NCBI GenBank assembly: GCA_030390025.1
Contig: CM059432.1
Span: 11,470,001 to 11,534,000 of the forward strand
From: Squalus acanthias
Lineage: Eukaryota
Length of the DNA: 64,000 nucleotides
Direction of reading: 5' to 3'
Both the position numbers and the translations under genes were made by a program. Positions within the stretch are counted from its first letter, which is position 1. Every line of letters begins with the position of its first letter. Shown here piece by piece: positions 41,038-54,062 of the stretch. The notes beneath the pieces are model-generated. The model made no database searches, was not told the origin of the DNA, and was given only the letters and a program-made list of their open reading frames with translations.

Positions 41038-42137
41038 AATAGTTTTCACTCTATGCTTAATACTCTGTAAACATCAACAATAAATGCTTTTGAACCCTAT
41101 TACTTTGAGGAGCAACTTATAAGTAAGAACACCCATTCCCTAACAGCTTCATGCATGATGAATGTAGTTCATAAACCCAGATTTCTGTAAATTGGGTAAA
41201 ATCAAGCAGAAATGAGGATGGACAACTGTAATACTGGTTCTCTGCCAATTTAGTGCCCCATGCGGCTTCCCACCAGCACTGCCTTCTGGTGACAGCGGCG
41301 CCACGAGTTTAAGAATTTGCATATGTTAATGAGTCCTAATGAAGTTTTCATGTCCTTAGCACCATTTTCTGACATTCGCACGGCTGTTTCATCAACATGC
41401 GCATATAAAACAGGTATCCAAGGTGGCTATTGACAGGAGTGCTGTTAAAGAGCTTTGGCTGAAGACTGCAAGGAAAATGTACTTCTTGGTGAATATTTAT
41501 CTTTATTAATATTTATATAATAAAAATAAGAACTACAGTGGCTCTCAGTTAAGCAACGCCTCGATTTTAAAATTCTCATCCTTGTTTTCAGATCCCTCCA
41601 TGGCCTCGCCAGCCCCACAACCCCCCCCCCCCCCCCCACTGAGATCTGCGCACTCCGCCAGTTCTGTTGCGCATCCCCGATTTTATTTCTCCACCATTGG
41701 CAGCCGTGCCTTCAGCTGCCTGGGTCTAGGCTCTGGAATTCACCCCATAAACCTCCTTTAAGACGCTCCTTAAAACCTAGCTCTTTGACCATGCTTTTGG
41801 TCAGCTGCCCTAACATCTTATATGGCTCGGTGTCAAATTTTGTTTTGATAAACGCTCCTGTAAAGCGCCTTGGGATGTTTTACTACGTTAAAGATGCTAT
41901 ATGAATACAAGTTGTTGTTATCCTTTGTTTTGTTTCCTATTGTTTTCACTTAGGTGTTCTATTACCTTTATGGCAGCCTTCGGGTCAGTGATATTATTGT
42001 CCCAATCTCATTGTTATTACCACAATGGGAATTCCTCGTATTTTGTGTCTTTCGGAGCAACAGAATGGTGTTAGATAAGTCAGACTGGATCAAAGACGCT
42101 GTGCCCTGTTAGTACCCTTGCAATCCCCATTTACAAA

Positions 42138-42222
42138 AGTGAGAAGTCGCACAACACCAGGTTATAGTCCAACAGCTTTATTTGAAATCACAAGCTTTCG
42201 GAGCGCTGCTCCTTCGTCAGGT
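42138..42222 (-). mobile_element. Penelope pLTR fragment with hammerhead core
   Basis: Near-identical to 11333-11416. Confidence 0.85.
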
Positions 42223-42229
42223 TCACCGA

Positions 42230-45170
42230 CGAGTCTAAGACTTATTTCAAGTGTGGGAAGACGGGACACTGGAGGCGGGATTGCCCGGCCCAAAAGGGGG
42301 GGTCAAGCCGAGGGGGTCCTCCCGTGCGAAAACCCCAGGTCACCGAGGCGAAGGAAGCGACCAATGAACCATTTGATGTTCTGGTGGCCGCCCTTCACAA
42401 GGTGCTGGGGAAGGACAAAGGAAGGCTAGACGCTGCCGTGAGCAGCATAACGCCGACCGCACCCACATGTCCCCCTTCATCCTGACTAGAACGCGCCCAG
42501 CCTGAGTACCTGTGTCCGCTCACATATGATGAGTGGGACAGGCCCTGTGTTAAGATGGGGGTGGAGACGGTGCAGGGGAGATATTTGGTGGACACCGGAG
42601 CTTCCAGCACGGTGGTCCATTCGAAGGACCCAACCAATTCACCCTGGTCTAACAAGGTCCCATTTAGCCTAATGGGATTCACAGGGAACGAGCAGGCGGG
42701 GGCAATGTCCAAACCCCTTAGAATAGAGCTAGGGTCCCTCCGCACCAAGTGGAAGTGCGTGCTAATGAAATGGGAGCAACCAGGGTGGGGAGTCCTCGGG
42801 GCTGATTTCATGTTAGCCAACCGGATCATTGTGGACCTGAGGAATCACTGCCTGTGGGGGACAGTGGTCTCGGACAAGACAGAGGAGGTGATAGTGATCC
42901 CCAGAGATAAGGGAGGAGGGGGTAGTGTATGCACCATGAAACCCAAAGGGAGTTACGACCTGGAACAGTTGGTTAGTAGCGCCCCAGCCCAGTACCAGGC
43001 GAATGTACGGGACAACCTCGCTGCATTCGCCACCCATAAACACGATTGTGGCAGGGTGACCGGGGTAGAGGTCCAGGTGCAAGGGGACCCCATGTCATAG
43101 AAACATAGAAACATAGAATCTAGGAGCAGGAGTAGGCCATTCGGCCCATCGAGCCTGCTCCACCATTCAATACGATCATGGCTGATCATCCAAATCCAGT
43201 ACCCTGTCCCTGCTTTTGTGGCCCATGTCTAGGCCACAAAAGCAGTATAGTTTCCCCCGGGAGGCAGAAGCCGACTTGGAGACGGCACTGGGATCCCTGG
43301 TAAACAGGGGGTGTTGAGACTAATAGCCACCCACGTGAACTCACCACTCTGGCCGGTGAAGAAACCCGACCAGTCGTGGAGAGCCACCGTGGACTATCGG
43401 GTCCTTAATAAGAACATCCCAGTTTGCGCGCCCTCAGTCGCAGCTGTCGCCGATCTGATAGGGAGCATTCCAGCAACCGCAACCACATTCACAGTGCTGG
43501 ATATCTCCAACGGGTTTTGGTCGATTCCCCTCAGACGGGAAGACCAATACAAATTTGCATTCACTTTTAAAGGGCAGCAGTATACATGGACATGCCTTCC
43601 CCAGGGGTTCCACAACAGCCCCTCCATATTCCACGAATGCATGGCAGACGCATTAAAAGGCTTCAGCCGACCCCACCAGTTAATCCGGTACGTGGACGAC
43701 CTGCTTTTGTTCTCCGCAGAGGGGGAGAACCATGGGCCACTGCTGGACGAGCTGCTAAAGCTGTTGCAGGAGGCGGGGTTCAAGATCAACCCCAAGAAAG
43801 CCCAGATCGGCCAGGAGGAAGTCAAATTCCTCGGGCTGACCGTAAGGGCTGGTGAAAGGGCCATAGACGAGGCTAGGAGGAAGGCAGTACAGGAGCTACC
43901 AGCCCCCAAGAATGTGACCAGAGTAAGGTCTTTTCTGGGACTCACAGGGTACTGCTGGGACTTCATAGAGGGTTACGCAGCCACGGCAGCCCCTCTGCTT
44001 CGGCTCCTCTGCAAGGGAGTCGAGTGGGAGTGGGATCAGAACTGCCAGGAAGCGTTCACTCGCCTCAAAGGGGATTTGCAGACGGCACCCGCATTGGGAG
44101 CCATTAACGGTGGGGAAGAATTCTTCTTAGAGGTAGCAGCCAGTGGGGATAACTTGAGCGCGGTGTTGCTCCAGGAGCGACACGGCAAGCTACGGCCTGT
44201 GGTATACTCATCTAGGGTTCTCACCGAGGTAGAACGGGGATATTCCAACTGCGAGAGGCACCTCCTAGCCACGCATTGGGCCGTAAAACACTCAGCTTTT
44301 TACGGGTTCATTCCCAATAGTTCTCTTGATCCACCACACACCCACACAGATGCTGTTGGACGGGAGAATCAAAGATGGGACGGTGAGCAGTGCCCGCATT
44401 GCTCGCTGGACATTACTGCTCTCACAGTTGAACTTGAGAGTGCAGGGGTTGATCGAGCCAAAGCTAGCAGCCAACATGATTTACCCAGGGACGGCCCACA
44501 CGTGTACGGTAGAAGGGGTGTGGGATGTAGATGAAGGATTCCGGGCCGGGATACACCCGAGGGGCTGGGACATCTATATAGACGGGTCCAGTTCGGTCGT
44601 GAAGGGGGAGCGTCTCACCGGGTGCAGAATCTATGACCCTACGGCTAAAATAGCGAAGGCCATTAAACTCCCCAACACCCTGAGCGCTCAGCACACCGAA
44701 CTGGTGGCGGTGGTGTACGTGGTCACCCACCCCGACGAGTTCCCCACCCCCTACACCATTTGCTCGGACTCTATGTTCACGTGCAACTCATGCACGGAAT
44801 ACTTGCAATCTGGGTCAGGTGCGGATTCAAGTCCGCAGATGGGAAGCCCCTAGCAACAGCACCGCTGCTAGGTAAAATTTTGGAGGCCACAGGCACCCGG
44901 GGAGATCACTATATTCACACAGTTAAAGCCCATTCAAAGACAGAGCCCAAGTGGGAGGGCAACCAAAAGGCAGACGAGCTGGCCAAACAGGGGGCCAGGG
45001 AAGGCGCATTCTGGGATCCGTACAAAGCAGGTCCGGTAGCAACAATCCAGGACAAGGGAGGCACACAGTGGGTAGCTTTGACCCCGGACTTAAAGCAGGT
45101 CCAAGCCCAGGATCCCGTCCTTAAGGCTGTCCTGGTAAAGAGAGAGAATGGGGAGTCCATAGACGGTCCG
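42230..45170 (+). mobile_element. Endogenous retrovirus fragment: gag end, protease, RT, tether, RNase H (no LTR, integrase or env seen)
   Basis: Knuckle YFKCGKTGHWRRDC; protease LVDTGAS; RT LDISNGFW..LPQGFHNSP..YVDDLL; tether LRPVVYSSR; RNase H YIDGS..SAQHTEL..SDS..VKAH..GNQKADELAK; frameshifts near 43305, 44290 and 44805. Confidence 0.9.
43097..43221 (-). mobile_element. Short CR1-type 3' tail inserted into ERV pol
   Basis: (catagaaa)n tail; TSD CCCATGTC at 43089-43096 and 43222-43229. Confidence 0.85.
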
Positions 45171-46065: not shown

Positions 46066-46156
46066 AATATCTCATTCTATGCATAGGGTCACTTAATGAG
46101 TCATGGTTCACACCTTGTTCAATCTTACATATATATTAACGCTTTGACTAACTATA

Positions 46157-47925
46157 AGAACCCCCAGCTTCTGTCGTGACACTACAGACTTCTTGCAGAA
46201 ACTCAGCACCCATGGACCAGTTGAACCAGGAACACTCCTCGTCACAATGGACGTATCGGCACTCTACACCAATATCCCCCACAATGACGGCATCGCTGCG
46301 ACAGCCTCAGTACTCAACACCAACAACAGCCAATCTCCGGACGCCATCCTACAACTCATCCGCTTCATCCTTGACCACAATGTCTTCACCTTCGACAACC
46401 ATTTTTTTACCCAAACACACGGAACAGCCATGGGGACCAAATTCGCACCCCAATACGCCAACATCTTCATGCACAAGTTCGAGCAAGACTTCTTCGCTGC
46501 ACAGGACCTCCAACCAACGCTGTACACCAGATACATCGACGACATCTTCTTCCTTTGGACCCACGGCGAAGGATCACTGAAAGGACTACACGATAGCATC
46601 AACAGGTTCCATCCCACCATCAAACTCACCATGGACTACTCCTCAGAATCGGTTTCATTCTTGGACACACGAATCTCCATCAAAGACGGACGCCTCAGCA
46701 CGTCACTCTACCGCAAGCCCACGGACAACCTCACGATGCTCCACTTCTCCAGCTTTCACCCTAACCACGTTAAAGAAGCCATCCCCTATGGACAAGCCCT
46801 GCGAATACACAGGATCTGCTCAGACGAGGAGGAACGCAATGGACACCTACGGACACTGAAAGACGCCCTCGTAAGAACGGGATATGACGCTCGACTCGTC
46901 GATCGACAGTTCCGACGGGCCACAGCGAAAAACCGCATAGACCTCCTCAGAAGACGAACACGGGACACAACCAACAGAGTACCCTACGTCGTCCAGTACT
47001 TCCCCGGAGCGGAAAAACTACGCCATGTTCTTCGCAGCCTTCAACATGTCATCGATGACGACGAACACCTTGCTAAGGCCATCCCCACGCCTCCACTACT
47101 CGCCTTCAAGCAGCCGCCTAACCTCAAAAGTACCATCGTTCGCAGCAGATTACCCATCTTTCAGGAGAACAGCAACCACGACACCACACAACCCTGCCAC
47201 GGCAACCTCTGCAAGACATGCCAAATCATGGACACAGATACCATCATCACACGTGAGGACACTACCCACCAGGTACATGGTACATACTCATGTGACTCGG
47301 CCAACGTTGTCTACCTGATACGTTGCAGTAAAGGATGCTCCAGAGCATGGTACATCGGCGAGACCATGCAGACACTGAGACAACGTATGAACGGACACCG
47401 CGCAACAATCGCCAGGCAGGAGGGTTGCCTCCCAGTCGGGGAACACTTCAGCAGTCAGGGGCATTCAGCCTCGGATCTGCGGGTAAGCGTTCTCCAAGGC
47501 GGCCTTCGGGATACACGACAGCGCAAAATCATAGAGCAGAAACTGATAGCCAAGTTCCGCACTCATGAGGATGGCCTCAATCGCGATATCGGGTTCATGT
47601 CACGATACAGAACGTGACTTGACATCATGGCCGGTCTTTCCAGGTTTTGTTTTAAAAAGACTAACACAAATGGAGAGGATATGCAGCCAGCAGGTGTTTT
47701 GACACGTTGGACCCCCTGGGACACATCTCATTGTCTTGGCTGTGCTCTTAGTGTGTCTTTGATGTAGGGAAAGATTTGAATAGATTTTCTCTGTGTTTAT
47801 ATTGTGAATTCTGGGAGATTCTCTCACAGCTACCCTACCTGAGGAAGGAGCGAGCAGCTCCGAAAGCTTGTAAAATTAAATAAATCTGTTGGACTATAAC
47901 CTGGTGTTGTGCGACTTCTCATTTT
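46157..47925 (+). mobile_element. Penelope-like element, 5'-truncated, uninterrupted RT plus GIY-YIG ORF (46193-47617) and pLTR
   Basis: TMDVSALYTNIP, GTAMGT, RYIDD, CxxC linker, VVYLIRC..WYIGET..LRQRMNGHR, GLNRD; pLTR with hammerhead and AATAAA. Confidence 0.93.
47836..47872 (+). ncRNA. Minimal hammerhead ribozyme motif in Penelope pLTR
   Basis: TAC-CTGAGGA-A-GGAGC-gagca-GCTCC-GAAA-GCTT-GTA. Confidence 0.72.
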
Positions 47926-52563: not shown

Positions 52564-52899
52564 GGGGGAAAAATTCGGTTGCTTAGCGCCTCCCGTTAGC
52601 GCCCTAAGAGGTCGCTAATGGGGTGCAACGCAACTAGCGCCCGGGCACGGTGATGTTTGCGCCGCTCGCGAAATTGACCCCTCCTTTCCGCCTGCCGCAA
52701 GCAACGACAGGGAGACTGGAACGTTTTCCAGTCGGTGAGGGCCTGGGGGGGGGCACTATTTAAATGCGCCCTCTTCCTGCCTTTTTTTGTGGGAGACTTT
52801 TTTGCATTCTGAGAGAGAAAGACTTCTGCATAGAGTCAACACTGTGTGAAGTAGTTTTGGCTACTGAGCATCACTTTGCAGGTTCTTTTGGATTTGACC

Positions 52900-54062
52900 T
52901 TCATTACTTTGATTGTCAAGAGACTCTGGGGGCTGCACTGATTCGGGGCGTCGTCCTGCGCCTGCAGAATCAGAGGCATAGAGACGCAGAGAGAGAGTGG
53001 CAATCATGGTCAGACGGAGGAGGGCCAACAGGCCTCTGCACAGGAGACCTTACCCTCCCATGGTATTCCGGGAACATTAATTTGTCTGAGGAGCAGTGTT
53101 TGCGCAGGCTGCGCTTCAGCAAGGAGGTGGTCACTGAGCTCTGCCACCTGCTGCAGCCAGATCTGCAGCCTCAACTGAGGACCAGGATGTCTCTGTCGGT
53201 GGCAGTGAAGGTCACAGTGGCTCTGAGTTTTTATGCCACCGGCTCCTTTCAAGCAGCTACTGGGGACCTCGCCAATATCTCACAGTTCGCGGTCCATTGC
53301 TGTATCCGACAGGTCACAAATGCCCTCTATAAAAGGAGACACCAGTACATCTCTTTCTCGATGACCCGGGCCAAACAGCATGAATGCGCATTGGGGTTTG
53401 CGAGGATAGCGGGCTTCCCCATGGTGCAGGGCGCCATTGACTGCATGCATGTGGCATTGTGGGCACTGCAGGAGAATGCAGAGGTTTTCCAAAACTGCAA
53501 GGGGTTCCACTCCTTAAACGTCCAGTTGGTGTGAGACCACAGACAGCTGATACTCACTGTCAATGCCCGCTATCCTGGCAGCAGCCACGATGCTTTCATC
53601 CTGCGTCAGACTGGTGTGCCAGAGCTTTTCCAGGCAGCGCATCAGCCAAGTGGTTGGCTCCTCAGGGACAAGGGTTATCCATTCTGGACCTGGCTGATGA
53701 CACCGCTCCATAACCCCAACACCCCTGCTGAGCTGCGGTACAATGAGAGCCATCTCGCCACTAGGAACATCATTGAGCAGACGATCGGCGTGCTCAAGCA
53801 ACGGTTCCGCTGTCCGGACCACTCGGGAGGAGCCCTGCAGTACTCGTCTGAGCGAGTCTCCCTCTTCATAGTTGTTTGCTGCATTCTTCATAACCTTGCA
53901 ATCCTCAGGACCCAGCCAATGCCACCAGGCCTTGGTGCATCACCGGAGGAGGAGGAAGAAGAGGAGGAGGATGATCAGCAGCAGCATCAAGGCGGGAGGG
54001 AGGGCCACAATGTTGAAACTGCAAGGGCTGTCCGTCAAAGACTGATAACAAGCCGCTTCTAG
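52900..54062 (+). pseudogene. Harbinger (HARBI1-like) DDE transposase with an in-frame stop at 53532-53534
   Basis: LSEEQCLRRLRF, ALSFYATGSFQ, GAIDCMH, YPGSSHDAFIL, LRDKGYP, RNIIEQTIGVLKQRFRC; true start uncertain. Confidence 0.88.

Follow-up and report, generated by a model that had tools for sequence, protein, structure and literature searches.

Snakehead retrovirus (SnRV) is placed in an SnRV clade of the Orthoretrovirinae (PMC12193657), and endogenous retroviruses (ERVs) related to it have been published from all major vertebrate groups (clade Huo, PMC6001957; PMC12193657), including cartilaginous fish (CmiERV lineage I, PMC4422223; clade Huo, PMC6001957). The reverse transcriptases (RTs) of cartilaginous-fish ERVs fall mostly in clade III (10.1101/2023.10.17.562709), and CmiERV lineage I of the elephant shark was reported to cluster with SnRV (PMC4422223). 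For the lokiretroviruses, five cartilaginous genomes stand in Table S2 of PMC7947760 without an asterisk, apparently the loki-positive mark. The same paper lays out four scenarios for the origin of retroviral env without being able to tell them apart, and PMC11468914 treats class Ia Env (that of orthoretroviruses) as unrelated to class Ib Env (that of foamy viruses). Our comparison with known ERVs also drew on PMC9040795, PMC12440569, PMC10536682, 10.1101/2023.10.26.564294, 10.1101/2021.11.05.467493, and 10.1101/2021.11.23.469661.

Here, we analyzed a 64-kb stretch of Squalus acanthias DNA (the window), in which positions 42224 to 45170 hold a gag-end/protease/RT/tether/RNase H fragment of an LTR element. 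We are fairly confident that this fragment stems from a multicopy ERV, of which it is one dead and truncated copy, and that this ERV is among the early-branching true retroviruses, likely of the SnRV-related (class III, "clade Huo") grade. The family is new, while its Pol belongs to the basal SnRV-like/class III grade that is already known and is neither loki nor foamy. We separate grade from family because SnRV-related ERVs have been published widely and because CmiERV-I has very similar RT motifs but a gamma-type Env. An earlier note on this DNA had proposed an undescribed lineage, which holds for the family but not for the wider group, given the SnRV-related ERVs already in print from cartilaginous fish.

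The window fragment and its family in the shark genome

Identity to sister copies begins at 42224 and stops at 45146-45170 on the forward strand. The 3' end of gag (42224-42482; PF00098, E 2e-6) contains a single CCHC-type knuckle (~42243-42284), which the Pfam search of open pieces recovered as zf-CCHC in the 42186 frame (E 2e-6). Its first ligand is gone, as the earlier note had said, and CCHC is intact in 23 of the 28 loci that cover the knuckle. The aspartic protease (domain ~42534-42812; PF00077, RVP, E 2.5e-5) and a spacer follow in the gag frame at 42486-43096. A CR1 3' end with an 8-nt target-site duplication (43097-43221, reverse strand, repeat family D17) then splits the start of the RT, which occupies 43222-44096 on the forward strand (PF00078, RVT_1, E 5.5e-36) and carries a frameshift near 43300. 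Downstream on the same strand lie the tether, a degenerate Ty3-type RNase H with a frameshift near 44290 (44031-44430; PF17919, RT_RNaseH_2, E 3e-21; PF17917, E 9e-13), and a second, complete-type RNase H with a frameshift near 44800 (44572-44996; PF00075 over two frames, E 1e-7 and 2e-4). The tether presumably lacks the catalytic acidic residues, judging by eye against the Ty3 positions. Tether and RNase H are unbroken in a natural sister copy (E 4e-19). The RNase H-integrase linker (44997-45170, forward strand) comes last, and comparison with sister copies places the end of this copy before the integrase zinc finger. The RT motifs, CR1 insert, tether, and second RNase H that had been read from the letters are thus all present.

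All three frameshifts are private to this copy, since 28/29, 29/29, and 26/29 sister loci, respectively, differ from it near 43300, 44290, and 44800. A search for the rest of the element elsewhere in the 64-kb window found no LTR, integrase core, or env. The copy is an ordinary dead, truncated fragment with no evident function.

Other elements share the window. An open 489-codon frame at 46148-47617 (forward strand) encodes a Penelope-like RT (RVT_1, E 2e-8) with a GIY-YIG-like end recognized by eye, and an inverted relative of this element's terminal repeat, also identified by eye, abuts the ERV fragment at its 5' break (~42125-42225). A Harbinger-type DDE transposase remnant with one stop occupies 52764-54062 (forward strand; DDE_Tnp_4, E 2.5e-24).

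Genome-wide, a 1-kb RT query returned 2676 first-look candidates, and the 40 that were scored were all 94-100% identical. There were at least 163 matches to a 21-nt RT pattern and at least 337 to an LTR pattern (controls, 0 and 2). The earlier note had suggested looking for full copies, and the genome does hold fuller ones of ~10 kb, with LTRs of ~1 kb, a CCHC Gag, an in-frame UGA-CUAG gag-pol junction, integrase, and env. When ten copies were lengthened to 20 kb, paired LTRs (up to ~1 kb) with TG...CA ends were found in four and an env frame in six; the two copies in which both outer ends are intact show a 4-bp target-site duplication (TSD). The complete LTR-PBS-gag-pol-env-PPT-LTR layout is thus a property of natural sister copies and not of the window copy. 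In such copies, Gag consists of a coiled coil and one CCHC, and integrase of a zinc finger, a core, and an SH3-like end.

The primer binding site (PBS) of seven of nine copies agrees in 13-15 of 15 nt with a tRNA-Arg(TCG) gene of the genome. The LTR contains, right at its 3' end, two degenerate PBS-like repeats (e.g., loci L050 and L039), with 4 nt between the LTR and the true PBS. Long tandem arrays with a period of ~1623 bp and carrying tRNA-Arg(TCG) extend over 38.9-42.2 Mb of contig C26 of the shark genome (G000); the single array unit that was checked also contains tRNA-Ser(GCT), and the pattern has 429 matches genome-wide.

Distances between paired LTRs of 0.023-0.043 correspond to 23-43 My at an assumed rate of 0.5e-9 (PMC10699275) and to 53-97 My at an assumed 2.2e-10 (PMC4422223). 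Between copies, pN/pS is 0.45-0.57 in all genes (gag, pol, and env; 0.48 in env), against 0.74-1.13 in shifted frames, values that may be biased downward because copies were chosen by similarity and read against open frames. The gap persists with CpG codons masked. Constraint on env between copies is a sign of spread by reinfection.

A search of sequencing runs listed 17 (seven organisms and one unlabelled) that contain 0.40-0.56 of the family's words, with no RNA run among them. The sole match in a search with Gag was one chimeric shark gene model, and Atlas features of Gag were of the retrotransposon-Gag/Ty3-capsid kind only. Four shark gene models (P0066, P0069, P0086, and P0175; cadherin-related, Niban 1-like, fbxo15, and EP4 receptor) include pieces of the family's env or gag. 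These are probably annotation chimeras, with exonization a possibility.

Phylogenetic position of Pol

For the first RT tree, rows with fewer than 250 residues covered or longer than 420 were dropped, and 59 of 124 were used; one later tree dropped 19 more, and another dropped 21 and added four beta rows. Loki and SnRV reference rows were labelled by motif match to the supplement of PMC7947760, and foamy, gamma, and beta rows by motif. The trees were built without Odin, fish foamy-like ERVs, CmiERV-I, or lenti-, alpha-, and deltaviruses. In all three IQ-TREE trees, the window RT lies inside the canonical retroviruses, apart from loki and gypsy (support 100/99, 100/98, and 100/99), where it shares a clade with Pol proteins from frogs and coelacanth (91/98, 96/95, and 93/87). 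These frog and coelacanth proteins, annotated as "NYNRIN-like" (P0006, P0007, P0008, and P0117), are its nearest named RT relatives, at 50-52% identity. AU tests under LG+G4 rejected grouping of the RT with loki (p-AU 0.0005 and 0.003 in two tests), with foamy viruses (p-AU 0.022, tetrapod foamy viruses only), and with epsilon/gammaretroviruses (class I; p-AU 0.0016). Grouping with SnRV was not rejected (p-AU 0.23); SnRV is sister to the window lineage in one of the three trees (85/76) and apart from it in the other two, in one of them across a 91/95 branch. These results uphold the view that the fragment derives from a deep-branching retrovirus in a cartilaginous fish that is neither gypsy, epsilon, nor foamy. 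The tether plus second RNase H and the layout of the sister copies are likewise those of canonical Retroviridae.

A lokiretrovirus, which would be the first from a cartilaginous fish, had been suggested for this locus. Lokiretroviruses (PMC7947760) share with the family a dual RNase H and an F-like Env with an R-X-R-R site, and possibly related RNase H and integrase; relatives of the family are also annotated NYNRIN-like. The window RT is 34-41% identical to loki RTs but falls outside them and lacks their motifs, so that under present sampling the RT refutes this reading. No PF00523 match was found for the Env in Pfam, and no smc gene was seen between the LTRs. We consider a lokiretrovirus extremely improbable. 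An IMG/VR search returned no loki genome.

The RT had also been called foamy-like, on motifs that proved not to be diagnostic. The window RT does have NGFW and RPQKQY-type motifs in common with foamy viruses, yet its motifs fit the SnRV row better, its identity to foamy RTs is 32-35%, and in a PDB search it scored higher against MLV-type RT (184 bits) than against foamy Pol (170) or Ty3 (142). Foamy Gag has no CCHC and foamy Pol is made separately from Gag, whereas the window family has a CCHC Gag and an in-frame gag-pol junction. If the fragment came from a foamy virus, or from a fish foamy-like one such as ERV-Spuma.0-Sca, that would account for the F-like Env and the RNase H affinity described below, but this reading is disfavored by the AU test against tetrapod foamy viruses, the fish foamy-like ERVs being outside the trees, and we regard it as very unlikely. 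Protein motifs of ERV-Spuma.0-Sca were not found in the supplement of its paper.

The RNase H and integrase trees bear on a stronger alternative, in which the sharks, skates, frogs, and coelacanth carry a basal lineage of their own, no nearer to SnRV than to other retroviruses, that kept a loki/foamy-type RNase H and a loki-related integrase. In the mixture-model RT tree, the clade (96/95) lies outside SnRV, foamy, and epsilon/gamma. The RNase H of the window lineage groups with loki and foamy at 79/95 (SH 95 in a quick tree; loki_P0026 and cl3_P0030 removed), although the alternative still stands after testing (p 0.15 over 147 columns); pairing with the SnRV RNase H is weakly rejected (p 0.037). 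In the integrase tree, from which CGIN1 was absent, loki is sister to the coelacanth and frog relatives at 99/94, but the window family's own integrase has no supported position. Against a separate lineage also stands the RT grouping with SnRV that the AU test allowed. We hold this alternative to be plausible though clearly the less probable one, and it overlaps with an SnRV-related placement because "class III/Huo" may itself be a grade.

Within the SnRV-related grade that we favor, SnRV itself (locus L051; PMC12193657) resembles the family in its coiled-coil Gag with one CCHC and in its in-frame stop before Pol, and the two share 42% RT identity and homologous Env. Outside the knuckle, the two Gag proteins show no similarity. 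The SnRV PBS, as we read it, is of the Arg type like that of the window family. SnRV differs in its stop context (UAG-GGC, against UGA-CUAG in the window family) and in having accessory ORFs, an insert before integrase, and a long Env tail, the ORFs and tail not having been seen in the window family. CmiERV-I likewise comes from a cartilaginous host and has, by eye, one CCHC in Gag and a tether plus RNase H (PMC4422223). Over the RT stretch that runs from the motif of the first catalytic Asp through the PQGF motif, ~40 of 46 residues are identical between CmiERV-I and the window RT, against ~36 of 46 for SnRV, counted by eye rather than with an alignment tool. The CmiERV-I Env is gamma-type by eye (ISD, CX6CC), whereas the window family's Env pieces lack both motifs and are F-like; PBS and LTR differ as well. 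With the RT compared by eye only, CmiERV-I is a related group but another family.

Two further candidates were set aside. Crocodilian and turtle ERV4 has no Gag zinc finger and a 5-bp TSD (PMC4299795, Table 1), and membership is ruled out by the presence of CCHC and the 4-bp TSD in both informative copies. The Odin retrotransposon, which has no env and an RT sister to loki, is ruled out by env in family copies, with no Odin sequence in the tree.

A UGA-CUAG stop between gag and pol

In the window, the in-frame gag/pol stop lies at 42483-42489 (forward strand) in a UGA-CUAG context and is a predicted readthrough site. Across the family, gag and protease share one frame; of 28 loci, 27 have TGA between the two and 24 have the longer TGACTAG. 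In alphaviruses and some host genes, UGA-CUA serves as the type II readthrough motif (PMC13517186); the retrovirus passage of that paper gives UAG contexts and other UGA contexts, and UGA-CUA is absent from it. In 25 of 28 loci, an ATG stands 13 codons upstream of the active site of the protease, which makes a separate pol start possible. We favor readthrough because the Pfam protease match begins upstream of this conserved ATG, and Pol is thus likely made as a Gag-Pol fusion. RNA structure after the gag stop was not significant (z -1.3).

A predicted F-like envelope

In natural copies, the family Env opens with a signal-like stretch and contains an R-Y-R-R site and a single transmembrane segment. 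Searches by sequence in Pfam and the PDB returned no identification of this protein and no PF00523 match; among 34 Env family members, Pfam gave one Baculo_F match (E 0.001), and Atlas features pointed to F-type fusogens (0.95, at low recognition). We then relied on a predicted structure (pLDDT 71.6, pTM 0.48). The model matches hPIV3 and RSV F with a Foldseek E of 1e-9, and it aligns with NDV F (Z 10.7, rmsd 17.8, 354 aligned), hMPV F (Z 8.9, rmsd 6.0, 279 aligned), and foamy Env (Z 8.3, rmsd 6.7, 265 aligned). Its top 16 structural matches are all viral fusion proteins of the F/foamy-Env kind. Read with the large rmsd values and the pTM of 0.48, these matches predict that the family Env folds like paramyxo/pneumovirus F.

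Homology searches extended the comparison to fish retroviruses. The Env family profile matched Env of the walleye virus WDSV at 19.5 bits and, weakly, that of SnRV at 9.5, where no more than 3.6 was reached in 200 shuffles, and HHalign aligned family and SnRV Env over 269 columns (prob 87, E 3.9e-6). A model of SnRV Env (pLDDT 61.9) matched both paramyxovirus F (E 2e-5) and foamy Env (Z 7.5, rmsd 11.7, 251 aligned), a weak and partly circular comparison because the protein was folded on an alignment that includes the window ERV family. Env proteins of walleye epsilonretroviruses (L053; BFVD) match the F-like Env model at E 6e-7 and 1e-5. Published papers call epsilon Env unclassified. An F-like Env for SnRV or epsilonretroviruses was nowhere stated in the literature we searched, though subscription papers, bioRxiv supplements, Viro3D (PMC12583693), and PMC9967133 may cover it; the accessible part of PMC11468914 mentions neither SnRV nor epsilonretroviruses.

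Among 39 relatives of the Env, the closest at 72%, 19 were looked up, of which 14 were from cartilaginous fish and three from frogs; homologous Env occurs in three frog species. One frog species holds a cluster of 16 near-identical members (P0095), most of 677 aa, which suggests that the Env family is young there.

The earlier note had held that an F-like env would support loki. Such an Env is indeed predicted here, but it does not discriminate: it is not diagnostic of loki because the class Ib core of foamy Env is F-like too (PMC11468914) and because the family is also matched by the Env of SnRV and of the walleye virus.

From these features, a life history can be proposed. Reverse transcription would be primed by tRNA-Arg, Gag would end at UGA with Pol likely arising by stop-codon readthrough as a Gag-Pol fusion, and integrase would duplicate 4 bp of the target. 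Entry likely relied on an F-like (class Ib) Env cleaved by furin, and therefore the copies likely spread at least partly through germ-line reinfection, which may have taken place some tens of millions of years ago. The window copy would later have lost both ends, gained the CR1 insert, and acquired three frameshifts.

The interest of the family rests on its envelope. A retrovirus of CCHC-Gag, Gag-Pol type with a class Ib Env, together with the SnRV and walleye-virus matches, suggests that class Ib Env spans the base of the retrovirus family. We offer only tentatively the broader proposal that retroviruses started out with an F-like (class Ib) Env, which gamma- and beta-type Env later replaced but which persists in loki, foamy, epsilon, SnRV, and the shark/amphibian/coelacanth lineage; that lineage would then be among the earliest canonical branches, with an old loki/foamy RNase H and alphavirus-style UGA-CUAG readthrough. 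F-like Env falls away as a lokiretrovirus marker. Instead, it may be ancestral in retroviruses, and the ancestry of retroviral Env becomes testable on two living fish viruses.
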